A stretch of 64,000 nt of DNA from Candidatus Didemnitutus sp. (GCA_023701285.1 JAMPXH010000005.1:2240-66239), one strand, 5' to 3'; positions 17,263 to 37,677 are shown, numbered from the stretch's first letter. Numbers and translations: made by a program. The notes: generated from the sequence alone by a model not told the origin.

Positions 17263-18651
17263 ATGGAGCCCTCGCATTCCGACCTTGGCCGCCGGCGCCA
17301 GCGCGAAATCTATGTCGCGGGGGTGGGCGGACGCCGTCCGGCGGTGCCGGTGGCCGCCGCTGAGTTGGAGGCCGCGGCCCGGCAGGCGATGGCGCCCGAA
17401 GCCTTCGCTTACGTGGCCGGCGGCGCCGGACGCGAGACGACGATGGAGGCCAACCGCGCGGCGTTCGATCGCTGGAAGATCGTCCCGCGCGTCCTGCGCG
17501 ATGTCGAACAGCGGGACCTGACGATCGAGCTGTTCGGCCAGTCCCTGCCGTCGCCGCTGTTGCTTGCGCCGATCGGCGTGCTGGAGATGGCGCATCGCGA
17601 TGCCGATCTCGCGGTCGCCCGGGCGGCGGTGGCTCTGCGCGTGCCGTTCATCTTTTCCAACCAGGCTTCGGTGCCGATGGAGGCTTGCGCTGCTGCGATG
17701 GGTGAGGCGCCGCGCTGGTTCCAACTCTACTGGAGCCGCTCCGACGAAGTCGTCGCGAGTTTCGCGCGCCGTGCGGAGGCCTGCGGTTGCGGCGCGATCG
17801 TGCTGACGCTCGACACGACGATGCTCGGCTGGCGTCCGCGCGACCTGGATCTGGGTTACCTGCCGTTCCTGCGCGGGCTGGGCATCGCGCAATACACCAG
17901 CGATCCGGTGTTCATGCGCGAGGTGCGCGCGCTGTGTGCGGCGGAGTCGGGTAGGGCGAGTTCTCCGAACGAGCCGGCATCCGGTTCGCAGCGAGGGACG
18001 GCTCGTTCGGAGAACTCGCCCTACCCAGGGAACTCGCCTTACCCGGAGAACTCGCCGCACCCGGAGGCTCGGCCGCCTCTTTCATGGCAGACGATCGCGG
18101 CCGCACTGGCGCAAAAGGCGAATTTTCCCGGCGGGCTGTGGCGCAACCTCGGCTCAGGCGAGCCGCGTGCGGCCGTGCAGCGGTTCGTCGGCACGTATTC
18201 GCGTCCGTCGCTGCGTTGGGAGGATGTGAAATTTCTCCGCCGGCACACGAAGCTGCCGATCTTGCTCAAGGGCGTGTTGCACCCTGACGACGCGCGTCTC
18301 GCGGCCCAACTCGGGCTCGACGGTCTCATCGTCTCGAATCACGGCGGCCGGCAGATCGATGGCGGGATCGCGGCGCTGGACGCGTTGCCCGCCATCGTCG
18401 ACGCCGTGGGCGGGCGCATGCCGGTGCTGTTCGACAGCGGTGTGCGCGGCGGCGCGGATGTGTTCAAGGCGCTCGCGCTCGGCGCGACGGCGGTGTGCTT
18501 GGGGCGCCCCTACGTTTACGGCCTCGCGCTCGCCGGCGAAGTGGGCGTGCGCGAAGTGATGTCGAACGTGCTGGCGGAATTCGACCTCACGATGGGCCTG
18601 GCGGGCTGCACGAGCATGGCAGAAGTTAAGCGCGAGGCGCTCGCCGGTTAG
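17263..18651 (+). CDS. FMN-dependent alpha-hydroxy acid oxidase (lactate 2-monooxygenase-like) with in-frame repeat insertion
   Basis: APIGV, WFQLY, LTLDT, LLKG, SNHGGRQ (catalytic His/Arg), DSGVRGG and GRPY motifs. Confidence 0.9.
17949..18062. repeat. REP-like palindrome (28-bp perfect arms, 22-bp spacer) plus two degenerate 18-bp tandem copies, inside the CDS
   Basis: GGGTAGGGCGAGTTCTCCGAACGAGCCG (17949-17976) and its exact reverse complement (17999-18026). Then AGGGAACTCGCCTTACCC and GGAGAACTCGCCGCACCC. Total 114 bp = 38 codons. Confidence 0.88.
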
Positions 18652-21600
18652 CGGCGGCGCGTCCGGCGCCAGCCAGCCAGGGCGAGAGCGGCGAGGCCGA
18701 GCAGCGCGGCGTAGGTGGACGGTTCGGGAATCGCGGTGAACACGAGATCGACGTTCTGGCCGTTTTGCGCAACGGACCATGTGCCGCCGTTGAGCGCGTT
18801 GGTGAAGCCGCTCGCGTTGATCGCGAAATAACTGGAGTTGAAGCCCGTGATGCCGCCGCTGGCACTGGCGATGGTGAAACTGTAGTTTTCCGCGGGGTTA
18901 AAGTTCGCGGCGAAGCCGGCGGTGTTGGCGAGGGTCAGCGACACGAGTTGGAGCGTGAATTTGCTTTCGGCGGTGGCCGTGAGCGACAGGACTCCGTTGA
19001 TGTTGGCGAAATCCCAACCGGGATCACTGCCGGCGCTGCCGGTGGCGTCGTTGATTTCCCAAAGATAATTGCCGCCGCCGGCCCAGGTCGTGTTGCCGGA
19101 GTGGAGCGTGCCCGGCGAGTTGCCCGGCGCAAACGTGCCGCCGTTCGCGATGGTGAGCGCGCCGGTGGTGCCCGTGCCGCTGAGCGTGCCGCCGGCGACG
19201 GTGAACGCGCTGTTGGCCACGGTGCCCGTGAGCTTGAGTTCGCCGCCAGTGACCTCGGTTTCGCCGGAGTAGGTGTGGGTGCCGCCGAGGGCGAGAACGC
19301 CGGTGCCCGTTTTCACGAGGCCGCCGTCGCCGGCGATCGAACCGGTGAAGTTGGAGTCGGTGTTCTGCGCGACGGTGAGGCTGGCTTGGTTGAGGGCGAC
19401 GTTGCCTGAGCCTTCCAAGCGGCCGACAGTGGCGGAGTGCTCGGCGACTTCGAGCGTGGCATCCGCCGCGATGTTCACAGGTGCGCTGTGGGGAAGGGCG
19501 CCGGCCGCGGCGAGGCGGAGCGTGCCTTGCGAGAGTGTGACTCCGCCGGAAAACGTATTCGCATTGCCCAGGATGAGCATGCCCGGACCGTCGAGCACGA
19601 GGCCGCCGGCGCCGGAGAGTTGTCCGGTGAATGTGTTTGTGCCCGTGGGCGCGACGGCGAGTCCGGCCGAGCCGGTGTCGAGGGCGCCGTCGCCGCTGAG
19701 GCCGCCGAGCGCGAGCGCGAAGCCGTTGGCGTCGAAATTCGCGCCGGACGCAACGTGCAGCGTGGTGTGCGGGCTGAGCGCGTCGGCGATGCCAAGTCGC
19801 AGCGTGCCGGCGTTGACGAAGGTGTCGCCGGCGTAGGTGTTCGTGCCGCCGAGAATGAGCGTGCCGGCGCCGAGTTTGGTGAGGTGGTTGCCGGCGGCGC
19901 CGGATATGTTCCCGCTCCACGCCAGCGTGACATCGGCCGCTGTCTCGAACGCGCCGCCACCGGCGTTGAGCGTGACGTTGCGCGCCGAGGTGAAGTCCGC
20001 CGTCGCGCGCAGTGCGCCGCCGCCGAATGTGATCGCGCCGCTGGCGTTGCCGAGTGCCGTGTCAGCGGCAATCGCGAGCGTGCCGGCGTTGACGTGGATG
20101 CCGCCGGAAAACGTATTCGCGCCGCCGAGGGCGAGGACGCCGTCGCCGGATTTCGTGAGCGCGCCGACGCCGGCGATGATGCCGTCGTAAGTGAGCGCCT
20201 TGTCCTCGAACGTGCGCAACTCGCCGTGATTGGCGCCGAGCGTGATGCCGCGACGCGCATCGAGGGCGAAGCTCTCGAACGCGGCGAGGGCACCGCCGTT
20301 GAGCACGAGGCGACCCGCGGTGGCGTTGGTCGGCGCGGTGCCGAGCGCGGCGTCGGCGCCGATCGCCAACATGCCTGCTTCCACCGTGGTGACGCCGGTG
20401 AAGGTGTTCGCACCGGTCAGGGTCAACGTGCCGGCGCCGCGCTTCGACAGGTTGCCGGTTTGGGGGATGAATTCGCCGGTGCTGATGTTGGTGGCGCCGC
20501 CGGGGCTGCTGATCACACCGGCGTAGGTGAGATCGTCGCTGCGGTTGAAACGCAGGGTGGGATTGGGACCGGTGAAAATCACGTTGCCGACGATCGAGCC
20601 GGTGGTGCCGCCGTTGCCGATTTGCAGAATCCCGCCTTGGATCGTCGTCGTGCCGGTGTAGGTGTTGGTGCCGGTGAGGCTGATATTGCCCGCGCCTTTG
20701 AAGAAGGCGCCGGTGCCGCTGATGTGGTTGGCCAGAACAAGATTGTTGCCCGACGTCGTCAGCAGGCCGTGATTCACGATGTCGCCGACCACGGTCGCGA
20801 GTGACAGTGTGAGCGTGCCGGACGAGATGAGCGTGCCGCCGGTGTAGGTTTGCGTGCCCGTCAGCGTGAGGGTGCCGCTACCGGTCTTGGTGAGTGAACC
20901 TGCGCCACTGAGCACGCCGGCATTGAGCGTCTTGGCCGCATCAATGGCGAAGGTGGCGCCATCGGCGCCCAGTTCGACCGGGCGCCCCGACAAACTGAAC
21001 GATTCGCTCGCGTGCAACGTGCCGCCGTTCACCAGCAGCGTGGCGGTCGTGTCCAATCCCAGCGCGGACGCCGCGGAGAGGGAAAGCGTGCCGTCCGTAA
21101 TCGCGGTGTTGCCGTAGAATTGCTGGTTCGCCGCCAAGGTGAGCGTGCTTTGGCCGGATTTCGTGAGGTGGCCGTAGCCGTAAATCGTGCCCGTGAATGC
21201 GGTGTCGGCGGCTTGATTGATCGTCAGCGAGGTGACGCGTTCCGTCGTGAAGGTGTTCAGATCGATGCGTCCATCACCGCTCAAGGTGCCGATGGAATTG
21301 ACGGTCTTGCGCAGGTCGAGTCGGGCGCCGGCGTTGATCGTCACGGCATGGGCGGCGGACATCACACCGTCGGCCTGAACCACCACGGTCGCCTGCGGTG
21401 ACGTGTTGTCGCCGGAATCGCTGTTGATCACGACGGGAGCCTGGATCGCGCCGGCGCTCATGAGGCTGGTGGAACCCTCGCCGCCGAACGAAATCGTGCC
21501 GCTGCCACGAAGTTGTCCGAAGAAGCTCTGGTAGCCGTAAACGAAGCCGAAACCTGAGCTGCCGAAATCGAGTGTGCCGGCGCCGGTGAAGCCATTGTAG

Positions 21601-24600
21601 AGATTCAACCGCTCGTGCGGCGTCTCGAGCGTGGCGCCTTGTTCGATGCTCAGCACGCCGAGGCCGCTGAGCGCATCGGCCGAATCAGCGCGCAGCACGC
21701 CGCCCTGCACCGTCAGGACGTTAATCGCATTGTCGGCGTCGATGACGAGCGTGCCCGCGCCGCGTTTGAGAAAATAGCCGGCCGAATCGCCGGGCCCAGC
21801 GGTAATCCGACCGCTCCAAGTCGCGGTGACGCCCTCGACCACGTCGACGCCGCCGTTCCACGTGTAGAGCGGACGCGTGGTGGCGAAGGCTTCCGTCATG
21901 CGCACGAAGGCGCCGTTGGTGAGGTCCACCGCGGCGCCGGTCTCGCCGAGTGCAGCGTCGTGTCCGACCGCGACAGTGGAATTGCTGACGATCGTCTGCG
22001 CGTGGGTGTTGCTGCCGAGCAAGGTCAGCACTCCGCCACCGCTGACGAACAGTCGCCCGTGATCGGTGGTCGCGGGATTCGCGCGGGTGATGGCGGACGC
22101 GAAGGTGATTTCGTTGCCGTTCAGATCGAGGCTGGTATAGCCGCTGGCCAGCGGGGCGAGTCGCGCGGAAATGTCACCCGTGTTGCCCTCGCCCCACCGC
22201 AGGATTCCGTTCACCACGATGTCGCCGGTGCCCAGACTCGCGGCGTCGCCGAATTCAACGGTGCCGTTCACCACGGTGCCGCCGCTGTAGGTGTTGGTGC
22301 CGTTGAGCGTGAACAACCCGTGGTTGAGCGTGAGGCCGCCGGTGCCGGTGATCGGGCCATTGAGGATGACTTCGTTGAACTGGCCGCGCGTGGCGAACGT
22401 GGCGTCGGACGTCAACTCGATCGCCCGGCTCGAGGTGATTCCGTAGGTGATCAAGTTGCCGCCGGCGAACACGAGGTTGGCCGCGCTCGCGCCGAGGGCG
22501 CGATCATCGGAGACGTCGAGCAAGCCGCCCGCGATGCGCCAGGTGCCGGCGAAGGTGTTGCTGATGTTTTCCAGGCTAAGTTCGCCGTCGCCCGTTTTCG
22601 TGATCTCACCGCTGCCGCTCGTGACGCCCCACAATTGCAGGTCGTGGCCCGCTGTCGCGACGTGCAGCGTGCCGCCGTTCGCCGTGACGGCGAGGTTACC
22701 CCAGCGGGAGAACGATGCGTTGGCCTGCAGCGTGCCGCCCGCCAGCGTGAGTCCTGCGCTGGAGCCGCCGATGGCTGCTTCGTTCGCAATCGCGAGGGTG
22801 CCGCCGGCAATCGTCGTGCCGCCACTGTAGGAGTTGCTGCCCGAGAGCGTCAGCACGCCCGCGCCGATCTTGGTCAAACCGCCGTTGCCGCCGACATTTG
22901 TCAGACTGATGTTGTTGCCGTTGCTGTCGATCGAGCCACCGGCCGCCCCGAGCGAGAGGTTGCGCGACGAGAGATCGGCGGTCGAACCGCTCGCCCAGCG
23001 CAGGCCGCCACCGTTGAGCGTGAGGTCGCCGCTGCCGAGATTTGCCAGCGACCCGAACTCGACCAAGCCGCCGGTGACGTGCGTGCCGCCGGCGTAGGTG
23101 TTCGTGCCGGTGAGCGCGAGGATGCCGTCGCCCGCTTTCGTCAGTGCGCCGGTGCCACTGATGGCGCCGGCGAGCGTGACGTCGTTGCCGTTGGTGTGAA
23201 ACGCGCCGCCGCTGGCGCCCAGCGCGTTCAGGCGCGGCGAGACGTCGACGTTCGTGTCCGCGGCCCACTGCACGCCGCCGCCGTTCAGCGTGAGGCTGCC
23301 GGTGCCGAAGTTCGACAGGCTTGCGAACTGAATGAAGCCGCCGGTGGCGGTCGTGCCGCCAGTGAAGGTGTTGACGCCGCTCAACGCGAGAACGCCCGCG
23401 CCGCTCTTCGCCAGCCCGCCGCCGGCGGCGGTGCCGTCGCTGATGACTCCGCTGATGAGCACGGTGCCGGAATTCGCGAGCGCCAGCGTGCCGGCTTGTG
23501 CGGTGTTCGAAAGCAGGACGTTACCGGCCAGCGCCGTCATGCTGGAGTTCGTGACGGTCAACGTGCGCGATGTGGCGCCATCCGTGTCGTGCGTGAAGTT
23601 GCCCGAGAGCGTAAGCGCGGTGTCGCCGCCGATCACGGCTGAGTTCCTCAGCAGCACGGAATTTGCGACACTGACCGGCGAACCGGTGGCGCGGAGCTCG
23701 CCGCCTTCGATGCGCAGGCCGCCCGTGCCGAGCGCGTGCGCGTGGCCGAGCGCGAGGATGCCGGCCTGCAGCGTCGTGCCGCCGGAGTAGGTGTTGTTGC
23801 CCGAGAGCGCGAGCGTGCCGGCGCCGGTTTTCACCAGTGCGCCGTTCGTGCTCGTGCCGCCGTTTTCGACGACGCCGGTGAATGCGATCTGGCCGCTGCC
23901 GGCGATGGTGAACGTGCGTGACGTGGCGGAGTCGGACAACTGCGCGCCGCCGAAGCTGAGCGAGGCGATGTTGGCGAAGTTCAGCGTCACGTCGCTGCCG
24001 GACTGGTTGAGCAACTGGCCGGTGAACGTCAGGTCCGACGTGCCGCCGAAACCGATGGAGGGCGAACTGATCGCGACGGCGTTGGTCAGCGTGCGCGCCG
24101 AGCCGTTGCCCTGCAGCGTGCCGCCCGCGAGGTGCAGCGTGCCGGTGCCGAACGCGCCGTCGCTGCCGGCCACGAGCGTGCCGGATTCGAGTCGCGTGTC
24201 GCCGGCGTAGGTGTTGTTGCCCGAGAGCGTCAGCGTGTGCGTGCCGGTCTTGGTCAGGGTGGCGTTGGCGTTCGTGCCGGAGATGTCGCCGATGAAGTTC
24301 AGGTCTTTCGTGCCGCCGATGGCGGCATTGCCGGAGAGCGTCACGCGATTGTAGACGGTGTTCAACGTGCCGGCGCCGCGCAGCTCGCCGCCGGCGAGGT
24401 CGATGAACGTGTTGCCGAACGCGTAGACGTTCGTGCCGATCAGCACGCCGTCCTCGAGCCGCATGCCGTAGTGGAAATTTTCGCCGCTCAGCGTGAGCGT
24501 GCCGCTGCCGACCTTGATCAGACCGAATCCGCGTTGGCCGTCCGCGACGACGCCGGAAAGCGTGAGATTCTCCGCGCCGCCGACGCGCAGATTGCCGTCG

Positions 24601-27600
24601 AGCCAGATGTTGCCGGCGTGACTGCGCGCCGCGCCGGCGGCGAGCAACGCGCCGCCCGCGGCGACGAGGCGGTTGTCGTTGAGCGCGCGATCGCTGGCGA
24701 GGGCCAGCGTGCCGTCGAGCAAGCGGACGTCGCCGGTGAAGGTGTTGGTGCCGGTGAGCGTCAGCGTGCCGGCGCCGGCTTTCGTGAACGCTGCGCCGTT
24801 GGCGAGCGTGCCGGTGAAGTTGGTCGAGAGCTGCACGTCGTTGCCGTTCGTGTCGAACGTCGCGCCGGCGGCGATTTCTCCGCCGAGCCGCGAAGAGACA
24901 TCGGTGGTGGTCCCGCTGGCCCAGCGCAGCCCGCCACCTTGCAGGCCGATGTTGCCCGAGCCGAGATTGGCGAGGGAGCCGAACTCCACCAAGCCGCCGT
25001 AGGCCAGCAGGCCATTGAAGGAGTTGTTGCCGGTCAACACGAGCGTGTTCGCGTCGCGTTTCAGCAGGATGCCGGCGCCGGCGATGTCGCCCGAGAGCGT
25101 GAGCTGAGTCGTGCCGCCGATGTCGGTGTGGTTGGTGAACGTGAGGTCGTTGGCGATGGTGCGGCCACCGGTGCCGCCCGCGTGCAAGTCGCCGCCGTTG
25201 AAGTTCACGGCGCCGGTGCCGAAGGCGCTGTCGTGCGCGACGGTCACGACGCCCAACGACACGGCGGTGCCGCCGGAGTAGGTGTTAGCGCCGGAGAGCG
25301 TGAGATCGCCTTCGCCGTTTTTCGTGAGCGCACCGGTGCCGGAAATTTCTCCGCTGAGCGCGAGATCGGTCGTCGTCGTGAGCGTGGTGCTGGCGTTGAG
25401 TTCGACGTTGTTCGCCACGGCGTGGCTGCCGTGGTTGGAGCGCAAGGTGCCGCCGTCGACCACGAGCGTGCCGGTGCCGAGCGCGTCGCTGTGGCCGATG
25501 ACGAGTTGGCCGCCGCTGACGGTGGTGTTGCCGGTGTAGGTGTTGGCACCGGAGAGCGTGAGCGCGCCTGAGCCGGTTTTGACGATGCCGGCCGCAGTGG
25601 CTTCGATCGGCGCGATGTTGCCGGCGAGCGTGACGTTGGAAGAGCCGGAAACGGCGAGGTTCGTGCCGAGTCCGATCGCGTTTTGCAAGGTGCGGTCGCC
25701 GCTGGTTTGGAACGTGCCGCCCTCGATGCGCAGCGTGCCGGTGCCGAGTGCGTTGTCGTGCGCGGCAACGAGCGTGCCGTCCGTGAGCGTGACTCCGCCG
25801 TCGAAGGCGTTGTCGCCGCTCAAAGTGAGGGAGCCCGCGCCGCTCTTGGTCAGACCGTAACTGGCGCCGAAACCGTCGGTGATCGCGCCGGAGAGCACGG
25901 CGCCGCTCGCGCCTACGCTCAGCGTGGAATTGCTCGACAGCGCGGTGGCGCCCGAGAGGGTCAATAAATGCGAGCCGGCGAGCGTGACGTCGCCATCGAG
26001 CGCGACCGTGTTCGCCAGCGTGCGCGGCGCGATGCTCGTGGCGAGCGTGCCGTTGCGCAAAGTGAGTTGTCCGCTGCCGAGTGCGGAATCATGCGCGAGC
26101 ACGAGGGTGCCGCTGCTCAGCGTAGTGCCGCCGGTGTAGGTGTTGTTCGCCGTGAGCGTGAGCGAGCCGCTGCCGGATTTCTCGAGTCGGCCCGCGACGC
26201 CGGTGATCGTGCCGCTGTAAGTGGTGGTGGCGTTGCCGCTGATTTCGAGTTCGCCGCTGGAGAGCGCGATCGTGCCGCCGCCGGTGAGGGAATGGATGTT
26301 CTGCGTCGTGCCGATGAGTTTAAGCGTCGCGTTTTGCCCGAGGGAAACGGCGGAGGCTTCGGGCAAAACGTAGTTCGTGCCGAGTTCCAGGGTGCCATTG
26401 GCCAGGGAGGTCGCGCCGGTGTAAGTGTGCTGATTTCCCAGACGAAGCTCAGCGGAGCCGGTTTTCGTGAAGCCGCCGGTGCCGGAGATGACGCCGTTGA
26501 AAATGTTGTTGGTGAAATCCTCGAGCGTGAGCGTCGCATCGCCGAGGAGGATGCGCGTCGTGCTGAAGTCGCTGGCGAGCTGCGCGAAGGTGGTCGAGTG
26601 GCCGTTGAGATCAAGAGCACCATCGTAGTTTAATGTCAGCGACGATTGGGGCAAAATGTTCGCGGCGCCGAGGCGCAGCGTGCCGCCGCTCACGATGGTC
26701 GACGTGAAGCTGCTGGTGGCGTTCGTGAGCGTGAGCGTGCCATCGCCGACTTTGGTGAAACTGGAGTTCGTCAGGATGCGTCCGTCGAACGTGCTGCTCG
26801 CGCCGCCCGCGCCGACCGAAACGGGTGCATCGATCACGCTGAAAATGCCGCTGCCGCTGAGCGCGCCGATGGTCGCGGAGGTCATGAAGACGTCGAACGT
26901 CGCGCCACTCGCGAGGTGCACGCCGCCGGCGGTCACGAGCGGTGCGCCGTAAACGGTCAAGGTGCCTTGCTGGACGTCGAAGCTGCCGCTGTGGGCGTTG
27001 GCGGCATTGAGCGAGAGTTGGCCGGAGCCGGTCTTCGTCATCGTGCTCGTGCCGCTGATGCCGTTGCTCAGGAGGACGGTGTGGCCGTTGGTGTCGAACG
27101 TGCCGCCGTTGGCGCCGAGCGCGATGCGCGTGCCGGGCGTGCCGTTGCCTCCGCTCCAGCGCAGGCCGCCGCCGTCGAGCGTGAGTAGACCGCTGCCGAG
27201 ATTGGCGGCGGTGGCGATCTGAAGAAAACCTTCCGTGATGGTGGTGCTGCCGAGGAACGCGTTCGTGCCGCTGAGCGTGAGCGTGCCACTGCCGCTCTTG
27301 AGCAGCGTGCTGCTGGTGCTGTTGCCGGTGAGGTTGCCGAGTGTCACCGCGCCGCTGTTCACGAGGCTGAGCGAGCGGTTGAGTTCGTGCGGCAACAGGA
27401 CGTGGCTGAAGGTGGTCGAGCCCGCGTTGCTGACGGTCAACGTGGGGTTGTCGGCATCGACGCGCAGGTGCGCGATCGTGAGGGCCGCGTTGCCGGTGAT
27501 CGCGGTGTCTCCGGCGAGCGAGACCGTGCCGGAGGCGTTTTGCGCCGTGCGCGCTTCGAGCGTGCCGGCGTGCATCGTCAGCGTCCCGGAGCCGAGGGCG

Positions 27601-30600
27601 GTATCGCTCGCGAGTGTGACGCTGCCTGCATGGACGTGCGTGCCGGCGTGCGCGCCGGTGCCCGCCAGCGTGAGCGTGCCGCTGCCGAGTTTGATCAACT
27701 CTCCATTTGAAGACGCCGTGCCGCCGACGGTAACGTTGTGGGTGTGGTTCAGCGTGACGCTGCGTTGGGTGTTCGTCGGATCGACTTGGAGCAACGCGAA
27801 AGTGGTGTTGCCGGTGTTTGCGATGGTGAGCACGGCGTCGCCGCCGGTGTGGTTCGTCACTGTGCCGCCGAACGTGAGCGCGGAGTTGCCGCCGATGGTT
27901 GTGTTGGTCGTCACCGAAACGGCATTGGCCAGCGTGCGCTCATTGCCGTCGCCGCGAAGTTCGGCGCCAGCGAGCGTGAGCGTGCCGGTGCCGAAGGCGG
28001 CATTGTGTCCGGCGATGACGGTGCCACCTGCGAGCGTGGCGCCGCCGGAAAAAGTGTTGTTGCCGGAGAAGGTCTGCGTGGCGCCGCCGGATTTGAGGAG
28101 CGTGCCGCTGCCGCTGATGTTGCCCGTGTAGGTGGCGTTGCCGGTGTCTCCGTTCAGGGTCAGCTGCGTGTTCGGTCCGTGGAGGGCGATGATGCCGTTG
28201 CCCGTCAAGCGGCCCGCGGTGAGGCTGCTGGTGTTGGTGGCGTCGGCTTCCCCCAGTTCAAGCGTGCCGTGATTGGTGAAAAGATCCGCGGTGGAGAACG
28301 TGCCGGTGCTGACGCGCAGGACGCCGGTGGCGGCATTCGTGACGAGATTGGCGAGCGCGTTGGCGCCGTTGGTCGCGTTCACGAATTGCCCGCCGGAGTA
28401 GAGCGTGATCTCCGCGGCGTTCGTGTGGAGGTCCGCTCCGGTGAACGCGAGTGTGCCGGCGACTTCATAGCGGCCGCCGGTCAGCGTGTGGTTCGCGTAG
28501 TTGGTGAACGCGCCTTCGCTCGTGTCGATTTCGAGGCGGGCGCTGGCCTCGGCGCGCAGCAGGCCTTGGTTGGTGAAGCCGCCGGAGTCTGGTTTGATGA
28601 GCAACGTGGAGCCGGGCGCGGTCGCGCGGATCGTGCCGCCGGAGGCGTTGACGAAACTGACGTCCTCGATCGCGCCGGCGCCGCTGATCGTGTTGTCCGT
28701 GTTCGTAAGGGCAACGGTTGCGCCGTTCGCGGCGGTGAGGCGGCCGCTCGCGGCCCAGGTGTGCGTGGTCTCGTCGCCGACGGTCGTGCTCACGCGCCCG
28801 CCGAGTTGGATTTCGCCGCCGCCGGTCAGCGTGGAATTTCCGGTGAACGCGATCGTGCCCGCGTTCGTCGTGCCGGAGGTGCCGACGAAAATATCGCCGG
28901 CGTTCGCGACGTCGCCGCCGACGCGCAGGGTGGCGGCGTTGTCGATCTCGATCACGCCCGCGGCGGCGTTCTGCACGTTGGTGCCGAGCGTGGCGGTGGC
29001 GTTGGCGTCGGTGTGGCGAATGGCGCCTTCGTTCGCGAGCGTGCCGGTGCCGTCGATGATGGCGCCATTCGTGAGCACGATCGAGCCGCCGTTGGTGAAG
29101 ACGGTGCCGCCGCCGAGTTCGAGGCGGGTGGGCACGTTGACGTTGCCGCTGTTGACGAGCGTGAGCGTGGAGCCGAAGCCGGTGGAGGCGGACGTCGTCG
29201 CCGAAAGCGTGGTGTGGCCCGCGGCGATGTTCAACTGGGCGAGCGGGGCGACATCGAACTCGGCGAGCGCGAGCGTGGCATCGTCGAGCGTGAGAGTGCC
29301 GCCGGTGGCGACTTCGACGCGGCCGCCGTTGATGGTGGCGTTGGCGATGAGCATGGCGCCGTGCGACGCGATGCGTCCGGCGGTGGTGCCTTCGAAGTTC
29401 GTCACGGTCACGTCGCGAATCGTGAGCAGGCTCGGCGTGAAGGTGGGCTGCGACAGATCGGGTTCGCCGTTGACGAGCGGGTAGGTGAACGAGCCGTTCG
29501 CGCGAATGACGCCGCTGTTGGTAAGGTTGGCGCCGGAACTGTGGGTGAGGAGCAGGCCGGACGCGCCGAACGATTCGATCAGGCCGCGGTTGATGAGTTT
29601 CGCGCGAAACTCACCGGCGCCGAGCAGCATGTGCGTGGCGGAGTTGATGATCGTGCCGCCGCTGTCGACGAGCTGGTTTGCGGTTGAGTCGGTGAATTGG
29701 ATGCTCCCGGAGCCCGCGAGCGTGAGCGTGCCTTCGGCGCCGAGCTGCGCGCCGGTCGCGCCGCTGTGCTGCAGGAGAATGATGCCGTCGTTGTTGATCG
29801 TGGCGCCGCTTTTCGCGAGCAGCGTCGCGCCGGATTCAACCATCAATCCCGAGTCGTCCGTGAGCGTGAGATTGCCGGTGGATTGGAGCGTGAACGCCTG
29901 GTCGGGCGCGGTCGAAAAGAGCGCGCCGTCGGCGAGAATCAGCGATCCTGCGACGGAGTTCAGCGTGAGGCCGTCGATGCTCGTGTTCGTGCCGGTGCGG
30001 CGGGAGAAGCGCCAGTCGTCGCCGGCGAGCGTGAGCGTGTTGTTCGCGGCGAGCGCGGTGATCGGGGTGCCCTTGTATTCGAGGGTGCCGGCGAGGATAA
30101 GGTTGCCGATGCCGGAGAGCGTGCCGTCGGCGGCGACGTTGGACCAGTTGGAGGCGTCGGCATAGGTGAGCGTGCCGAGCGAACTCAACGTGGCGCCGGG
30201 CCCGATGAGAATGGTGCCGGTGTTGGTGAGCGTGTTGCGGAAGCCCAGCCAGCCGCTCGCGCCGGTGACGGTGATGAGACCGGTGCTGTGATTGGTGAGC
30301 GCTTCGACGCTCTTGAGCACCTGGCTCTGGAGGAAGAGCGAACCACGGTTGATGGCGAGGTAGGTGAGCGCGTCCTGGTTGTGGAACTGATTGTAGAAGG
30401 AGCCGCCAAGCACGTTGAGCGTGGTGCCGGCGCCGATCTCGCGGATGTTCGGGGCGGCGGTTTCACCCGTGCCATAGGCGACGGTGCCGCCGAGATTCCA
30501 CGTGCCGCCGGTGAGCGTGGCGGTGCGCGCGTCGAGGTCGACATTGGAAAAATTGCCGAGCATGCCGTCGACTTCGATGCGGCCGTCGGTCGTGAGATTG

Positions 30601-33008
30601 AGCGTGCCGTGGTTGGTGAACTGGTAGTCGAAGGTCTCGCCCGCGACGGCGAGCGTGCCGGCATCGACGTTGAGCGTGCGGCCCGCAGCGTTGGTGAAGT
30701 TGCCCTGCACGGTGAGTTCCGTCTGTTCACCGTCGATCCACATCGCGCCGTGATTTTGGAAATCTTGTGCGAGCGTCTGACGCGCTCCGCCGGCGAGCGC
30801 GAAGTTGCCGTGATTGCTCGCGAGCGTGGCGAGTGCGTCGGACTGACTGCCGCCGTCGGGCTGCCAATGGCTGATGCGCGGGTTCGAGGAAAAGCCGTCG
30901 AGCACGAGCGTGGTGCCCGCGCCAAGGCTCGTGATGCTGCGGCCGGCGGCGCCGTCCGCGCCTTGGTAAAAAATACTGCCGGAAAGCAGGTAGGTGCCGC
31001 CGAGCAATTCGCCCGTGGTGGAGTTGACGTTGAGGAAACCGTTCGCGGCGGTGAGTTGCAGCACGCCGTTGCCGTTCACGTCGAGCGTGGCGGCGGCGCC
31101 GTTCTGAAACGTCGTGGTCGTCAGCGTGCTGTCGAGCGCGACGGTGCCCTGGTTGGTGAAGGCGCGACCTGTGTTTAGATCGGTGCCGAGGCGCAGGGAG
31201 GCTCCGGCGGCGTTGGCCTCGAGCGTCGCAAGCGCATTGCCGTAAGCGGCGTTGCTGCTCGTGCGATTCTGCAGCGAGCCGGTGACGGTGAGGTTGCCGG
31301 CGTTGGTGACGATGCTGCCGCCGGTGTATTTCATTGTGCCGTGGACTTCGAGCGTGCCGCCGGTGAGTTGGCCGTTGGCGTCGACGTTGGTGAAAGTGCC
31401 GGTCTGCAACAGCGCGCCGGTGCCGACCTGGATGTAGCCGTCGTTGGTGAGGCCGGGCGTGCTGAGCTGGTTGGCGTTCTGACCGGTGCCGTTGGCGAGA
31501 ACGAGGGCGCCGCTCGGCGTGACGGTGAGGTGAACTTCGTTGTTGTAGAGACCGCCGTCGGAGAGCCGCAGTTGCCCGGCGAGCGAGGAGGTCGCGAACT
31601 GTCCGACGAGTCCCGGCAAATCGAGAACTTGGTTGGCCTCCAGGTTGCCGACGGTGGGGGCGACGTTCGTCACGCTGCGGCCGATGTAGGTCTGGTTCAG
31701 CGTGGTGTCGGTGATCGTGTGGTTGTTGGAATGAAGAATATTGTAGATCGAGGGCGTGGTGTTCGTCTCTTCGAAGAGCGGGCCGAACGTCACGCTGCCG
31801 AGTCCGCGCAGGGCGAACGCGGCCTTCAGCGCCTCGACCGTGGCGAAGCCGTTCACGAGGAGGCCGAGCTGGTTCTCGAGCTGGGTGGTGAGGAAGAACT
31901 CCGGATAGATCGCGACGTCGCCTTCGGGCTTCGTGAAGGAGATCGGCTGCGAGAGGTCGGTGACGACGAGGCGATTCGTTTCGACGGTGGTGCCGTTGGG
32001 CAAATGGTAGGTCAGCGGGATGCTCGAGCGCAGGATGACGCCGAGGGTGGGGTCGAGTTCGAGTTCCTGCCTGAGCCCGAAGTTCACGCCGATGGCGGTG
32101 CGCAGGAGCATCAGCTCGACGTTGGCGATGCCGGCGACGCTCAGGCGGAGATCGAGCGGGTTGGCGGGCAAGTTGGCTTTCGCCGCGGCGAGACCCGCGA
32201 GGTCGATGCCGAGTCCGAGCAGGCGTTCCTGCTCGGCGGTGATCGCGAGCGAGGAGCCCGAGGTGCCGGCGAGATGCGGCGCCTCGACGGTGATGGTGCC
32301 CACGCGTTTCTGCCACGGATAGACGACGCCGAGAGGACTCGACGGCGTGCGCAGGGAGTGGGTGAAGCCGTTCGTGAAGTCGGCCACCGGCGAGCCGAAG
32401 ATCGAGAGGGTGTTTGCGGCAAACGAGGCGATCGGGATCGTTGTGTCGGTGTTGATGATCTCGAGGCTGCCGCCGAAGCGCTTGAAGATCGCGGCCTCGA
32501 CGCCGACCGTTGCCTGCACGCGCAGCTTGGCGTTGATGTCGAAACCGCCGGAGGCAAAGGTCGACTCCATGTAGGACGAGCCGGGCGTCGGCGCGAGCAA
32601 CTGGTGTTGGATGTTGAGCGAATGCTGGCCCGCCGCGCTGATATTGTCCGGAGCCGTAATGGTCACCTGGTAGGGCAGCGAAACATTCACGTGTCCGGTG
32701 TCGCCAAAGACGTTGATGTTGATGCCGACCTCGCCGCTGGTGGAGCCGTAGACGCGCGCGCCCCAATCGCCGGTCCACGTCGTGTCGATGCTGCCGCTCG
32801 AGCCGCTCTCATTCCACGTGGCGCTGTAGGAATACGTGCTGCTGCCGAAGCTGCCGCCGTTGCCCCACATGTTCACGCCGGTGGCGCTGAAGGTTGGCGT
32901 ATAGGTCACTGCGGTTTGCGCGCGCGCCCATGGCGCTGAACAAAGTGCGAGCACCAAAACGCACGCGAGGAGGCGGGAGGGCGGGAGCTCCCGAGGGGTC
33001 GTGTCCAT
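18648..33008 (-). CDS. Giant (~4,786 aa) PEP-CTERM surface protein with ~30 autotransporter-associated beta-strand repeats
   Basis: Start [10 protein letters not shown] with a signal peptide ending ...WARAQ, repeated LTKxGxGTLTLxGxNTYxGxT units (about 30 counted by eye), and C-terminal [27 protein letters not shown]. There is no autotransporter beta-barrel. Confidence 0.93.
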
Positions 33009-33050
33009 GCCGCTAGTTTGCGATAGGAGTATCCGCCGCACGACGGAGCG

Positions 33051-33080
33051 GTGACGAGCTACGCACGCTTTGTGACGAGC
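33051..33080 (-). promoter_or_regulatory. Candidate LytTR operator: 9-bp perfect direct repeat with 12-bp spacer
   Basis: GTGACGAGC at 33051-33059 and 33072-33080 (GCTCGTCAC on the minus strand), 43-72 bp upstream of the giant gene ATG and just downstream of the LytTR gene. Confidence 0.7.
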
Positions 33081-33126
33081 GACGCCGTCATGCTGTAAAA
33101 TCCGAGGATTTCGGCCAAACTTCGGC

Positions 33127-33870
33127 TCAGTTCGGCAGGGGCGGGCCGAGATGCGCGCGCAACTCAGGCAAGTGATTGCGACTGACCGGCACGGGCTCGC
33201 GGACGCCGGCGACGCGCAATTCGGCGGTCTCGCGTGTGTCGCGGCGATGGCTTTCGATCGCCGCCAGGTTGACGAGCGCCTGTCGATGCGCGCGCTTGAA
33301 ATGCTCGGGCGGCAGGGCGTCTTCCCAACTCTTGAGCGTGCGGCGCGTGAGCAATCGCTCGCCATTGCGCAGCAGCACGTCGGAATAATTTTCGTTGGAA
33401 AAAATCGCGCTGATCTGTGCGAGCGGCACGAAGCGGTCGCCGGCGTCGGTGCGCACGAGCACGGTGTCGTCGCCGCACCACGCGGGCGGAGGAGCGCTCG
33501 CCGCGCTCAGTGCACCCGGCGCGGCGGTGAGCTTTGCCAGCGCGGCCGCGAAACGAGCGGTTGCGACCGGCTTCAACAGGTAATCGAGCGCGTTGACCTC
33601 AAAGGCGCGCAGCGCGAAGCGATCGTAGGCGGTGACAAAAATGATCCGCGCGCCCGGAGCGACGTGAGGCACCAATTCGAAGCCATTGCCGCCGACGAGC
33701 TGCACGTCGAGGAACACGAGATCGTAATCCGCGGTGGCGAGCCGCGCGCGGGCCCGGGCGAAAGTGGCGGCCTCGCCGACGACCGTGTAGCCCGCGTGAG
33801 CAGACAGGAGCCAGCGCAGCTCGTCGCGGGCGGCGGATTCATCGTCGATGAGAAGCGTGCGCGTCGTCAT
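33127..33870 (-). CDS. LytTR-family response regulator
   Basis: REC domain (IDDE, FLDVQ, TAYD, YLLKP) plus a LytTR domain (LLTRRTLKSWE...FKRAHRQALVN). Confidence 0.95.
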   Translation of the reverse strand: MTTRTLLIDDESAARDELRWLLSAHAGYTVVGEAATFARARARLATADYDLVFLDVQLVGGNGFELVPHVAPGARIIFVTAYDRFALRAFEVNALDYLLKPVATARFAAALAKLTAAPGALSAASAPPPAWCGDDTVLVRTDAGDRFVPLAQISAIFSNENYSDVLLRNGERLLTRRTLKSWEDALPPEHFKRAHRQALVNLAAIESHRRDTRETAELRVAGVREPVPVSRNHLPELRAHLGPPLPN

Positions 33871-36800
33871 GGGAGGCGCTGCGGGATGCGGAGGTGGATG
33901 CGCACCCAGCCGTCGTCATGGGTGACGCGAAATTCGTGTTTTCCCGGATAGTAGCGTCCCAAGCGCTGGCGCAAATTTTCCAGGCCGATGCCGTGCGAAG
34001 GCGCTGAATGCGCGCCCGGTTCCAGCCACTCGCCCGTGTTTGCGACCTCGATTTCGACCGTGTCGTCGGTGCCGCCGCGCACGGTGAGGCGAACGCCGAG
34101 TCGCTCGGCGCTCGTGGCCGTGCCGTATTTCACGGCGTTCTCGACCAGCGGCAGGAGGAGAAACGGCGGGATGCGCACGTCGCGCACGGTGTCGTCGGAG
34201 ACGATTTCGACGCTCATCAATTCGCCGAGACGGGCCTGTTCGATCTCGAGGTAGGCTGCGAGCTGCTTCAGTTCCTGCCCGACCGTCATCTCCGTTTCCT
34301 CGTGGCCGGGACGATGCAACGTGAGCCGGCAAAAGTCCGCGAGGCGCACGACCATCTCGCGCGCGGCGGACGGTTCGCGCATGATCTGCGCGCAGACGGA
34401 GTTGAGCGCGTTGAAGAGAAAATGCGGATTCAGCTGATAGCGGAGCACCTCGAGGCGCGCCTTTTCCTCGGCGAGGCGGGCGGATGTTTTCTCATCGAGT
34501 TCGAGTTGGTGAAGCCGGGCGAGTTCCTGGTTTTGGCGGTGCAACTCCTGCGTGCGCGCGGCGACCGCGGCTTCGAGTTGTTCGTTGCGGCGGCGCAGCG
34601 CCCGCAAACGGATGCGGATATAGAGCGCCACAAGCAGCGCGAAGAGCGCGACGTAGCCGGCGAGCGCGAGCGGCGAGAGCCACCACGGCGGCGAGATCGC
34701 AAACTGCAACTGCGCCTCCTCGCTCAGCCGGCCGGACAAATCCCGCGCTTGCACGCGAAACACGAAGCTGCGGTAGGGCAGGTTGGTGAAGTCGCGGTGC
34801 GTGGCCGGCGACCAGTCGCTCCATTGTTGGTCGAGACCATCGAGCCGCGTGCGGTAGAGCGTCGCGGTCCGCCCCCGATAATCGGGGCGGTAGGTCGGTG
34901 CGGCGAAGCGCACGTGGAGCGCGCTGTGTTCTGCGGGCAGCGTCGCACGCCCGCTTGACGCCGGATCGAGCAACGCCGGGCCTTCCGGCGCGTGCACGCC
35001 GCGGATGGTCACGTGCAACGGCGGCGCTTCGCGCGCAGGGCGCCACTCCAGGCCGACGGAAACCAGCGCGCCCTGACCGGCGAGCCACAAGGTGTGCGTG
35101 GCGGAATCGGCGTAGAGGCCGTTGCTCACCAGCGTCGCCAGCGGCGCAGTCGGAATCACCTCGGCGCGCCAGCGATCCGGCGCGATTGGCACCAAGCGCA
35201 CGAGTTCGCGCGCGGGCGGGCCAAGCCGCAGCCAGAGCTGCCCGGCGGCATCGTGGCTCGCCTCCGTGGCGCCGAGCACGCGCGCATCGATGCCCTCCAC
35301 GCGATCTTCCGGCACAAAGCGATCGCTCGCGGAGTCGTAACGCAGCAACCCCTGGGCCGAACTCACGATGAGCGAGTCGCCCAAGGTGAACAGCAGCGGC
35401 TCGTCGCGCCGCCGGGTGAGTCTGAGCCCGTCGGTTTCGCCATAGGCGCGCACGGGTGCATCGAGGCGGGCGCCGCGGCGGAAATCGATGCGCCAGACCG
35501 CTCCGGACGGGTTGACGGCCCACACAAAACCGTCGGCCGTTTCCAGCAGATGCACGATTGGTCCGGGCACATCGGCGAACCGGCCGATCACTCGCACCGA
35601 GTCGCCGTTCCACATGTCGAGCCACACGCCGCTGGTGTTGCCGCCGACGAGCAAGGCGGGGTCGTTGCGCAGGGTGATTATCGGCTGCAGCGCTTGGCGG
35701 ACGAGGGGGCGCAGCGAGTCATCGGGCAGCACTTCGCGCAAGGCGCCGGAAGTGACGAGCAGGCGGCCGCGAGCCTCGATGAGCCGGTTGGTGCCGAGCC
35801 GCATGCCCGGAATTTCGCGAAACGTCCCCTCGGGAGTCGAGACGGCGAGACCTTCGTTGTGTCCGACGTAGAGCTTTCCGGCGTGACGCAGGAGCGAGCG
35901 AGGTCCGCCTTCGAGACCCTGGGCTGCGCCATGCAAGGCGAACGGGCTGTCGAGTTGCACGCGTGCGAGGCCGGTGCGCGATGCCAGCCAGAGTCCGCCC
36001 TCGGCATCTTCCGTCAGCCAATCAATCCGGTTGCCGGGCAAACCGTGGCGCCGATCGATGCGCCGGACGAGGCGGCCGGCCCCGTCGAAGACCAGCAGGC
36101 CGTCCCGAACGGTGGCGCATGCATAGCCGCCATTCGCAAGCGCCGCCGCCGCGGTGATCTGGCTGTTGCTGATTTCCGGCGGCAGCGGCACGGTGAGTGT
36201 CGCTTGGGCTGCGCCGCGCTTCGTGGCGAGCAGGCCGCGGTTGGTGGCGAGGAGCAGTTCGTCCGGGGTGAGGGCGGCATGTCCGTAGACAATGCGATTG
36301 GCGCCGACTTCCGGATCCGGCACCGCGAGCGGGAACTCCGGCGGCGCGAGTTCGCTCCCGGCGATGCGATGCACCGAACCGTTGTTCAAGGCCACGTGCA
36401 GCGAGCCGTCCATCGTCCACAGGCTCGTGACGGTGGCGTCGTTGATCGGGAGCACGAATGGTGCGCCGTCCCGGGGGAAAACGAACAGGGTGCGCGCATT
36501 GGCGAATGCGACGGCGTCATTGGTCGCGGCCGCGAAGGCGACACTGCCGACAGCGCGTCCCGCAGCGGGCAGGCGCTCGCGCTGCGAGTGCGCGCGGAGC
36601 ATGCCGTGCGCGTCGGGTTCGAGCCGTGCGATATCGTCGCCCGCCGCCCAGACCGTGCCAGTCGTGTCGACGATCACGGTGCGCACGCGACCCTCGTTGG
36701 CCGTTTCGATCAGCCTCCACGCTGCACCGTCGTATTCGAGGACGCCGAAGTTGTTCGCCGCATAAATGAAGTGCGACGCCGGGTGCTGCACGATCTGCCA

Positions 36801-36995
36801 ATTCACAGGCGCGCCGCCGTATTCCTCGGCCGCCCACACGCGCAGAAACGGCGTGCCCGTGAGCTGCGGGTCGCGGACTTCGGCGGCGGTCAGCGCCGCC
36901 GCGAGCCCGAGCAGGCCGGCGACCCACCGCAACACGGGGCAAATTCGAAGCAGGGGCACGGAGTTCGAGTCAGGCGAACCGCATCGCAGCCGCAA
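33867..36995 (-). CDS. LytS-type sensor kinase with extracytoplasmic beta-propeller and Y_Y_Y domain
   Basis: Propeller repeats (EDAEGGLWLAS), Y_Y_Y region (YRTRLDGLDQQWS...FTNLPYRSFVFRVQA), a TM helix, LRYQLNPHFLFNALNS, LVENAVKYG and GIGLENL. The start is uncertain (36995 TTG or 36959 GTG). Confidence 0.92.
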   Translation of the reverse strand: MRLRCGSPDSNSVPLLRICPVLRWVAGLLGLAAALTAAEVRDPQLTGTPFLRVWAAEEYGGAPVNWQIVQHPASHFIYAANNFGVLEYDGAAWRLIETANEGRVRTVIVDTTGTVWAAGDDIARLEPDAHGMLRAHSQRERLPAAGRAVGSVAFAAATNDAVAFANARTLFVFPRDGAPFVLPINDATVTSLWTMDGSLHVALNNGSVHRIAGSELAPPEFPLAVPDPEVGANRIVYGHAALTPDELLLATNRGLLATKRGAAQATLTVPLPPEISNSQITAAAALANGGYACATVRDGLLVFDGAGRLVRRIDRRHGLPGNRIDWLTEDAEGGLWLASRTGLARVQLDSPFALHGAAQGLEGGPRSLLRHAGKLYVGHNEGLAVSTPEGTFREIPGMRLGTNRLIEARGRLLVTSGALREVLPDDSLRPLVRQALQPIITLRNDPALLVGGNTSGVWLDMWNGDSVRVIGRFADVPGPIVHLLETADGFVWAVNPSGAVWRIDFRRGARLDAPVRAYGETDGLRLTRRRDEPLLFTLGDSLIVSSAQGLLRYDSASDRFVPEDRVEGIDARVLGATEASHDAAGQLWLRLGPPARELVRLVPIAPDRWRAEVIPTAPLATLVSNGLYADSATHTLWLAGQGALVSVGLEWRPAREAPPLHVTIRGVHAPEGPALLDPASSGRATLPAEHSALHVRFAAPTYRPDYRGRTATLYRTRLDGLDQQWSDWSPATHRDFTNLPYRSFVFRVQARDLSGRLSEEAQLQFAISPPWWLSPLALAGYVALFALLVALYIRIRLRALRRRNEQLEAAVAARTQELHRQNQELARLHQLELDEKTSARLAEEKARLEVLRYQLNPHFLFNALNSVCAQIMREPSAAREMVVRLADFCRLTLHRPGHEETEMTVGQELKQLAAYLEIEQARLGELMSVEIVSDDTVRDVRIPPFLLLPLVENAVKYGTATSAERLGVRLTVRGGTDDTVEIEVANTGEWLEPGAHSAPSHGIGLENLRQRLGRYYPGKHEFRVTHDDGWVRIHLRIPQRLP

Positions 36996-37017: not shown

Positions 37018-37677
37018 TCAGATCACGGGGTAGCGGGGTGATTCGAGCGCGGCGATGCGGGCGAAGATGCGGTCGCTCGCAATCTGGTAGCGCTCCTTGC
37101 CGGCGCTCGGGTCGTCGTATTCCGCGGCCGTGATCGGCCGGCCGAAGACGACGTCGACGCGCGTGCCGAAACGCGGGAACTTCGCGCCCTTGCCGAAGGC
37201 TTCGAACGAGCCGTAAATGCGCGCCGGCACGACGGGCGCGCCGGTCTTGCAGGCCATCAGGCCCACGCCCGCCTTCGGCTTTTGCAGGTGGCCGTCGGGC
37301 GACCGCGTGCCTTCGGGGAAGAGAATGATCCCGCGGTTGTCGTGCAGCGCTTGCAGGACCTTGCGGATGGCTCCGACGTCGCCGCTGTCGCGGTCGACCG
37401 GAATGCATTCCACCCGGTCGAGCCACCAGCTGAAGACCTTGCCGTTCCACAGCGTCTTGCGCGCGAAGGGGCGCATCTGGCGCGGCACCTGGCAGCCGAC
37501 GAACGGCGGATCGAGGTGGCTGGCGTGGTTCGCCGCGACGAGGAACGGTCCGTTGGTGGGGATGTGTTCCAGCCCGGCCACTTCGCCGCGGAACCAGGCG
37601 TCGTGGCAGCCCTTCACCACATAATGGAAGAAGCCGTAGAACGGAGTCATCCGCGGTCGCTCGGGAGTGCAGGCCAT
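37018..37677 (-). CDS. plsC: 1-acyl-sn-glycerol-3-phosphate acyltransferase
   Basis: NHASHLD and FPEGTRS motifs; start at 37677 or 37650. Confidence 0.92.
   Translation of the reverse strand: MACTPERPRMTPFYGFFHYVVKGCHDAWFRGEVAGLEHIPTNGPFLVAANHASHLDPPFVGCQVPRQMRPFARKTLWNGKVFSWWLDRVECIPVDRDSGDVGAIRKVLQALHDNRGIILFPEGTRSPDGHLQKPKAGVGLMACKTGAPVVPARIYGSFEAFGKGAKFPRFGTRVDVVFGRPITAAEYDDPSAGKERYQIASDRIFARIAALESPRYPVI

Follow-up and report, generated by a model that had tools for sequence, protein, structure and literature searches.

Bacterial response regulators of the LytTR class bind imperfect direct repeats of 8-13 bp that lie about 12 bp apart (PMC4064291), and for the class member AlgR a 9-bp core, CCGTTCGTC or CCGTTTGTC, has been described (PMC4064291). 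For genes that encode PEP-CTERM proteins, a two-component system called PrsK/PrsR/PrsT is known, which is confined to Proteobacteria and is absent from Verrucomicrobium spinosum; for other phyla, the regulators of PEP-CTERM genes were described as still to be identified (Haft et al. 2006, PMC1569441). Here we describe a locus from Candidatus Didemnitutus sp., located in a 64-kb stretch of DNA (hereafter ‘the window’, whose positions are used as gene coordinates) that belongs to a 4.02-Mb, 220-contig metagenome-assembled genome of the family Opitutaceae. At this locus, genes for a sensor kinase and a LytTR regulator are separated by a 118-bp gap from a gene for a giant PEP-CTERM protein, and the gap carries a tandem repeat. 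We consider it likely, judging from comparative sequence evidence, that the kinase, the regulator and the repeat constitute a dedicated circuit that activates this one surface-protein gene.

Few surface proteins of environmental bacteria are as numerous, or as poorly understood, as the PEP-CTERM proteins. An initial annotation of the window, made by a model, had described the locus as a self-contained sensor-to-giant-protein circuit that it did not recognize as characterized in this lineage. The latter statement agrees with the outcome of our literature search, in which no paper combining LytTR and PEP-CTERM was found, none was found that describes such wiring, and nothing was found on the control of PEP-CTERM proteins outside Proteobacteria.

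A tandem repeat in the gap upstream of the giant gene

The gap contains a perfect 9-bp direct repeat, GCTCGTCAC-N12-GCTCGTCAC, whose copies reside at 33072-33080 and 33051-33059 on the minus strand. The 9-12-9 arrangement reported in the initial annotation is therefore present (33051-33080), and the 30-nt pattern occurs once in the 4.02-Mb assembly when no mismatches are allowed. The full repeat unit encompasses 13 nt, represented by CGTCGCTCGTCAC and CGTAGCTCGTCAC, which are identical at 12 of 13 positions (13-8-13). Whether it is viewed as a perfect 9-12-9 repeat or as a 13-8-13 repeat with one mismatch, the element exhibits the geometry published for LytTR sites (PMC4064291), and we refer to it below as the candidate operator (Table 1). 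An Rfam search of the spacer revealed no meaningful RNA element.

Conservation of the candidate operator in orthologous loci

An orthologous regulator (67-74% identity) is encoded in four genomes, at the loci designated L028 (genome G013), L029 (G021), L058 and L155. At a fifth locus (L156), the operator precedes the gene for a 3,060-amino-acid homologue of the giant protein, and no kinase/regulator pair is found within the 4.6 kb upstream, where the contig ends. The initial annotation had stated that a repeat not conserved upstream of orthologues would refute its idea, and the operator block is in fact present in all five relatives, each of which retains both half-sites. In an alignment of four orthologous loci, this block stands out as the best-preserved part of a spacer that has diverged elsewhere. 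Moreover, the distance from the end of the operator to the ATG of the adjoining cargo gene is 41-42 nt in all six loci.

The products of these cargo genes differ greatly in length, comprising 604 amino acids in G013 and G021, at least 976 in L058, 3,060 in L156, 4,072 in L155 and 4,786 in the window. The arrangement is not special to a giant gene, because an orthologous pair precedes a 604-amino-acid cargo in two genomes.

Some features of the individual loci were also recorded. About 46 extra nucleotides (33085-33126) separate the regulator stop codon from the operator in the window relative to all orthologues, and the left half-site of the relatives abuts or overlaps the regulator stop codon. 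Locus L029 (G021:C11) carries three operators, at 4066, 4867 and 6797, which precede the regulator gene, the gene for the 604-amino-acid PEP-CTERM cargo and a second gene whose 947-amino-acid product has a coiled-coil C-terminus; the window carries one.

Related candidate operators in the Opitutaceae

We extended the comparison to 49 kinase/regulator loci fetched from the wider family, with 1.1 Mb scanned in total. The regulator paralogues at these loci exhibit 43-57% identity, and up to about six are present per genome. In a template-only test, the 9-mer pair from the window was compared with 250-bp segments downstream of regulator genes, with periods of 20-22 permitted and a threshold of 15 of 18. 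Pairs at or above this threshold were found in 11 of 47 downstream segments (23%), versus 0.6% of 3,962 background segments. The enrichment of similar pairs at LytTR pairs that the initial annotation had called for is thus observed, and most of the targets are PEP-CTERM genes.

A position weight matrix for a 13-nt half-site was then iteratively refined. The resulting scores are bimodal, with 25 loci at 16.9 bits or more and all others at 3.0 bits or less, and the half-site consensus is approximately C-G-n-(C/G)-G-(T/C)-T-C-G-(T/C)-C-(A/C)-C; a shorter form, about CGnTTCGYCAC, resembles the AlgR core. A period of 21 predominates, 20 is seen in some cases and 22 is rare. With a threshold of 19 bits, 34 of the 49 loci carry a total of 43 sites, whereas the rate observed in the source genome predicts one or two by chance. 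Among the targets of these 43 sites are 17 complete PEP-CTERM genes, nine signal-peptide genes that are cut by the end of the locus and eight genes for other secreted proteins; the remainder are five kinase or regulator genes and four that are unclear.

Additional sites were encountered at positions on which the matrix had not been trained. In six loci that lack a downstream site, an operator resides upstream of the kinase gene on the opposite strand, where it faces a divergent gene for a secreted protein. Other sites precede convergent PEP-CTERM genes (L030 in the source genome, and L038) or are located at the kinase/regulator junction (L028, L029 and L075), and this last placement implies autoregulation. 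When the matrix was applied outside the Opitutaceae, to loci from other phyla that amount to 360 kb, it yielded only two matches, both weak and verrucomicrobial.

The half-sites can be divided into the subtypes GCTCGTC, GTTCGTC, ATTCGCC, GCTTGTC and GGTCCC, and a sixth clade exhibits a TGGTCAA type. When mapped onto the regulator tree, these subtypes require 20 changes, compared with a mean of 28.6 for shuffled assignments, and so low a number was reached in none of 200 shuffles. Such clustering is what co-evolution of each regulator with its own site would give. The circuit in the window is predicted to be one of a paralogous Opitutaceae family, in which every pair is accompanied by a particular half-site variant and by a separate gene for a secreted cargo.

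Several members of the collection depart from the predominant pattern. Six loci (L034, L037, L043, L047, L055 and L056) encode a second class of cargo, consisting of secreted proteins of about 700-990 amino acids without PEP-CTERM. Four of these proteins (L034, L043, L055 and L056) end in ...GNGR(V/I)YTITVEA(K/R)DAAGN..., and most of the genes are divergent from the kinase gene, with operators of the GCTTGTCAC or GTTGGTCAC type in front of them. At about positions 3790-3850 of L063, three tandem copies of the 20-nt unit GAGCATTTGCGGCCCTGTCG directly follow a paralogous regulator gene and may represent a divergent operator array that the matrix does not score. A weaker conserved pair, GCTGGTCAA-N12-G(C/T)TGGTCAA, is found upstream of the kinase gene in L040, L044 and L050, at a distance of about 5.1-5.2 kb from the regulator stop codon. 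These three loci belong to a regulator clade without strong sites, and the pair suggests a further variant of the half-site.

Putative promoter geometry downstream of the candidate operator

Nucleotides that follow the operator are also conserved across the 43 sites, with T at +8 (91%), T or C at +9 (89%) and G at +10 (79%). This T-Y-G box is located 7 nt downstream of the operator, and a weak rise in A/T content occurs at +29 to +37. We infer that T-Y-G might correspond to the TTG of a -35 element, with a degenerate -10 element after it. Hexamers that could fill these roles are present in the window (Table 1), and CAGTAT and CAAGTT occupy the place of the -10-like hexamer in L058 and L155, respectively. 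Transcription would then be expected to start approximately 6-7 nt past CAAACT, at the first base of the ATG (33008). The constant spacing of operator and ATG in the clade would possibly fit a leaderless or nearly leaderless mRNA.

Other candidate sites in the source genome

A scan of the source genome with the matrix produced six matches of at least 20 bits, versus none for the reversed matrix, and the site in the window ranks at the top with 29.1 bits. There are about 47 PEP-CTERM open reading frames (ORFs) in this genome, and the operator precedes only two of them, namely the giant gene and a gene on contig C198. A general PEP-CTERM regulon was considered and rejected, in that matches to the matrix are not enriched in the sequences that precede about 40-47 PEP-CTERM ORFs. 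Likewise, repeats with a period of 20-22 are not enriched upstream of PEP-CTERM ORFs (8 of 40, versus 34% of controls). This lack of class-wide enrichment argues for a dedicated circuit rather than a global PEP-CTERM regulon.

Contig C198 (locus L030) encodes a second kinase/LytTR pair, and no site is found after its regulator gene. Its site, CGCCGTTCGCCAC-N8-CGCGATTGGCCCC at 715-748 on the plus strand, instead precedes a convergent gene for a 329-amino-acid PEP-CTERM protein, and the same layout is observed in G023 (L038). A further candidate site lies upstream of another LytTR gene on contig C38. Autoregulation of the pair in the window was rejected: in contrast to L028 and L029, neither the region upstream of the kinase gene nor the kinase/regulator junction contains a site.

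Control of the PrsR type through sigma-54 was likewise rejected. The best match to TIGR02915 in the genome scores 393 bits versus a cut-off of 502.6, no GG-N10-GC element is present in the 118-bp spacer, and the adjacent regulator belongs to the LytTR class.

An array of three tandem half-sites (CCCGTTTCGTCAC, AGGGTTTCGTCAC and ACCGTTTTGTCAC) with a period of 22 was noted on the minus strand of contig C34, at about 36005-36060. The gene that begins 85 nt further on encodes a secreted 529-amino-acid protein without PEP-CTERM, and no LytTR gene was identified next to the array.

Kinase, regulator and cargo protein

Pfam and NCBIfam domains, together with the gene coordinates, agree with the initial annotation in placing a propeller/Y_Y_Y sensor kinase and a LytTR regulator beside the giant PEP-CTERM gene. 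The kinase carries PF06580 (His_kinase, 73 bits), PF07495 (Y_Y_Y, 31 bits) and PF07494 (Reg_prop, 27.5 bits), the last two above their cut-offs. The protein consists of a signal anchor, a periplasmic part of about 735 amino acids in which Y_Y_Y is combined with a Reg_prop propeller, a single transmembrane helix at about residues 775-800 and a His_kinase/ATPase core of the LytS type, in which an NPHFLFN His box and a GIGLENL G box are evident from the translation. In a PDB sequence search, the periplasmic part matched domains of Bacteroides hybrid sensors (3v9f, E-value 7e-11; 4a2l, E-value 2.5e-8), and the kinase also matched the kinase 6swj. The protein is 60% identical to its G013 orthologue from residue 40 on, and its true start is probably the GTG at 36935, giving MLRWVAGLL... 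Between paralogues, sensor domains are 32% identical, versus 53% for the kinase cores.

The regulator, whose gene overlaps that of the kinase by 4 bp, exhibits PF00072 (Response_reg, 64.7 bits) and PF04397 (LytTR, 67.3 bits) above their cut-offs, and the receiver residues DD9-10, D54, T82 and K100 are present in its translation. Its top NCBIfam match is BtsR (NF008677), but assignment as a BtsR equivalog was rejected because the score of 130.2 bits falls under the equivalog cut-off of 246. Six LytTR proteins are encoded in the source genome.

The giant protein, which is by far the largest of the PEP-CTERM ORF products in this genome, begins with a signal peptide that can be read from the sequence (residues 1-30, ARA/QT). 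This is followed by about 1,600 residues without a family, a region of about 3,000 residues composed of PATR beta-strand repeats (25 PF12951 stretches and 23 TIGR02601 stretches), a conserved C-terminal module and the PEP-CTERM signal (residues 4759-4786). The tail is canonical, with a PEP motif, a transmembrane helix and a basic cluster, and it scores 20.6 bits with PF07589 versus a cut-off of 20.7. Three exosortase genes (PF09721, above the cut-off) are present in the source genome. The last 500 amino acids are 42% identical to the entire 604-amino-acid cargo of the orthologous locus in G013, and the N-terminal region is shared with two giant relatives (72% and 40% identity). No Pfam family was matched by the first 1,600 amino acids at E-values up to 1, and Tandem Repeats Finder detected no recent tandem duplication within the gene. 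The sole Pfam signal in residues 30-1700 (27909-32921, minus strand) is a sub-threshold PATR stretch near residue 1640, at 21.9 bits versus 27.

The initial annotation had called this product a giant adhesin. Its size, its PEP-CTERM signal and its PATR repeats are confirmed, but the label ‘adhesin’ would derive only from the beta-helix repeats of the PATR type. Classification as a type V autotransporter was rejected, since PATR repeats are present but no autotransporter barrel family was matched and the C-terminus is a PEP-CTERM signal; the ShdA model scores 204 bits versus a cut-off of 2249.

The genes of the module are listed in Table 1. The order is aroA, cmk, a plsC-type gene, the kinase gene, the regulator gene, the 118-bp gap and the giant gene, and the downstream limit of the module is formed by a convergent gene for a flavin mononucleotide (FMN)-dependent dehydrogenase and a LysR gene. 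Relatives of the source genome are labelled Opitutus, Lacunisphaera, Oleiharenicola or Opitutaceae, and the culturable Oleiharenicola lentus (locus L067) is among the carriers of the module. The order aroA-cmk-plsC-kinase is common to the window and to L155, where PF01553 (Acyltransferase) is found at the plsC position and where the order continues with the regulator gene and the gene for the 4,072-amino-acid cargo, in synteny with the window. The flanks are not conserved with respect to the G013 locus.

Table 1. Positions of the candidate regulatory elements and genes in the window
Feature	Position	Strand	Basis or remark
Candidate LytTR operator, two direct 13-nt half-sites (CGTCGCTCGTCAC, CGTAGCTCGTCAC)	33051-33084	-	21 bp centre to centre; predicted
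-35-like hexamer TCGTGC	33038-33043	-	7 nt after operator; putative -35 role
Weak -10-like hexamer CAAACT	33015-33020	-	17-nt spacer from -35-like box; ends 6 nt before ATG; predicted
Giant cargo gene, 14.4 kb, 4,786 amino acids	18648-33008	-	Pfam/NCBIfam, translation
Response regulator gene, receiver (REC) + LytTR, 247 amino acids	33127-33870	-	Pfam, receiver residues
Sensor histidine kinase gene, 1,042 amino acids	33867-36995	-	Pfam, PDB sequence matches, motifs in translation
PlsC-type acyltransferase gene	37018-37677	-	NHxxxxD motif; adjoins kinase 5ʹ side, after cmk and aroA

A proposed circuit and its alternatives

The proposed circuit would operate as follows. The kinase is predicted to sense a periplasmic or extracellular signal through its propeller/Y_Y_Y domain, a fold with which the hybrid sensors of Bacteroides bind glycan fragments, and to phosphorylate the adjacent LytTR regulator. 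Two regulator molecules would then bind the tandem half-sites and, located at about -76 to -43 and just upstream of the -35-like box, would recruit RNA polymerase. Transcription is expected to begin at the ATG or no more than a few bases from it, yielding a leaderless or nearly leaderless mRNA. The product would be a beta-helical protein that undergoes Sec export and is then delivered by its PEP-CTERM tail to one of the three exosortases. Without an operator of their own in the source genome, the kinase and regulator genes probably have basal expression, with read-through from cmk and the plsC-type gene as a possible source; the plsC-type gene is otherwise regarded as context.

Some observations speak against this interpretation. 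Activation rather than repression is deduced from the position of the operator, the -10-like element is weak, and the leaderless start is deduced from geometry. The matrix was refined with loci of the type that it was subsequently used to score, a circularity that the template-only test and the untrained sites lessen but do not remove, and the clustering of half-sites on the regulator tree partly reflects the shared ancestry of whole loci. In addition, a period of 21 (9-12-9) occurs in the window only, whereas all five relatives exhibit a period of 20 (9-11-9), and exact spacing matters for LytTR regulators (PMC4064291). Thus, the repeat described in the initial annotation is conserved in its half-sites, but its 12-bp spacing is peculiar to the window, with 11 bp in the relatives. 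Spacers of 12 or 13 bp have reportedly been seen for AgrA, and a spacer difference of 1 bp therefore has precedent.

The repeat when taken alone is also not beyond chance at the scale of the window, in which five perfect period-21 runs of at least 9 bp occur, the other four being in coding sequence; its significance rests on its location and on the comparison with related loci. The abundance of such runs would suit an origin by functionless chance or slippage duplication. We consider this highly improbable, given that the block is kept across six loci whose flanks have diverged and that operators recur family-wide with bimodal scores, and because regulator identities of 43-74% exclude the possibility that the loci are recent copies of one another. 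If the site is functional, another regulator, such as a different member of the six LytTR proteins in the genome, might bind it, with adjacency being incidental. The similarity between half-sites of different clades and the operator in L156, upstream of which no pair is seen before the contig ends, are compatible with this explanation. It is nevertheless quite improbable, since half-site variants correspond to the clades of the regulators encoded beside them, the GCTCGTCAC variant is found with members of the present clade in the window, L028, L029, L058 and L155, and the pattern occurs once in the genome.

The remaining alternative concerns the sign of regulation. The repeats could be sites at which the regulator represses or exerts negative feedback, for example as a roadblock to read-through, such that the giant gene is expressed by default and is silenced by the signal. 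The interval between the regulator and giant genes yielded no terminator-like site and folds no better than shuffled sequences (z = -0.8), so read-through could make expression constitutive. The overlap of the left half-site with the regulator stop codon in orthologues would place the site within any read-through transcript, and AlgR is known to repress some promoters (PMC4064291). However, the fixed 7-nt distance from the operator to T-Y-G at 43 sites is the layout of an activator-dependent promoter and not that of a roadblock, and such sites are found as well before cargo genes in divergent or convergent orientation, which read-through of the regulator operon could not reach. We therefore regard repression as unlikely and favour activation of the giant gene by its adjacent kinase/regulator pair.

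Comparison with known systems

A tentative extension of these findings is that Opitutaceae, and perhaps other bacteria of the Planctomycetes-Verrucomicrobia-Chlamydiae (PVC) group, may have expanded propeller-sensor LytS/LytTR pairs as ‘one sensor, one surface protein’ switches. Each switch would respond to a separate external cue, probably a glycan, and would deploy, through a tandem AlgR-like operator variant of its own, a separate exosortase-sorted cargo. If so, cargo genes have been freely swapped and resized (240 to 4,786 amino acids) under a conserved promoter module. The locus and its roughly 40 relatives supply a concrete cis-element, a named regulator and a predicted promoter geometry. 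Their divergent sensor domains offer a route to the cues for surface remodelling, and the co-variation of regulators with half-sites is a natural data set for the poorly understood rules of LytTR recognition.

In the AgrC/AgrA (P2/P3 of S. aureus), ComD/ComE, PlnB/PlnC-D and VirS/VirR systems, a regulator with REC and LytTR domains binds paired direct repeats directly upstream of the -35 element of the activated promoter (PMC4064291), and this locus has a regulator of the same domain composition, paired repeats and a putative -35 element. The kinases of that group, however, are polytopic pheromone receptors of the HPK10 class, whereas the kinase here is of the LytS type (PF06580) with its periplasmic sensor of about 735 amino acids. 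Furthermore, no pheromone gene is present, the target is an exosortase cargo gene, and the half-site sequences are unrelated (TTCGTCAC against ACAGTTAAG).

A LytS-family kinase with a LytTR regulator is also found in AlgZ(FimS)/AlgR of P. aeruginosa. The AlgR core is nearly identical to half-sites of the family, for example CCGTTCGTCAC and CCGTTTGTCAC in L065, and several family half-sites consist of the AlgR core sequences plus AC. Unlike the operators described here, AlgR sites are often single and distant rather than 21-bp direct repeats (PMC4064291). AlgZ is without a large periplasmic sensor, and AlgR is a global regulator, whereas the pair in the window appears to serve one gene and gives no AlgR-specific NCBIfam match.

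By sequence, the closest named family comprises BtsS/BtsR (YehU/YehT) and YpdA/YpdB of E. coli, in which a LytS-type kinase and a LytTR regulator likewise control essentially one target gene. Regulators of the BtsR/YpdB type act through direct repeats with a 21-bp period. Their sensors differ in being membrane-embedded 5TM-Lyt domains, and their targets are pyruvate transporters.

The sensor module itself resembles that of the hybrid two-component systems of Bacteroides polysaccharide utilization loci (BT4663, PDB 4a2l/4a2m), where a periplasmic Reg_prop propeller with Y_Y_Y is again present and one sensor resides beside the locus that it controls. Those proteins fuse HisKA/HATPase, REC and an AraC output, whereas the kinase in the window ends after its ATPase domain and the LytTR regulator is separate. 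The target here is one surface protein instead of a glycan-degrading locus.

With respect to the type of gene controlled, the counterpart is PrsK/PrsR/PrsT, in which a two-component system is associated with a conserved cis-element before single-gene PEP-CTERM operons (PMC1569441). PrsR differs in being an NtrC-type sigma-54 activator, and its element contains GG-N10-GC (PMC1569441). If the tentative extension proposed above is true, the Opitutaceae family would represent the sigma-70/LytTR counterpart of PrsK/PrsR/PrsT, a counterpart whose discovery outside Proteobacteria was still awaited by Haft et al. 2006.

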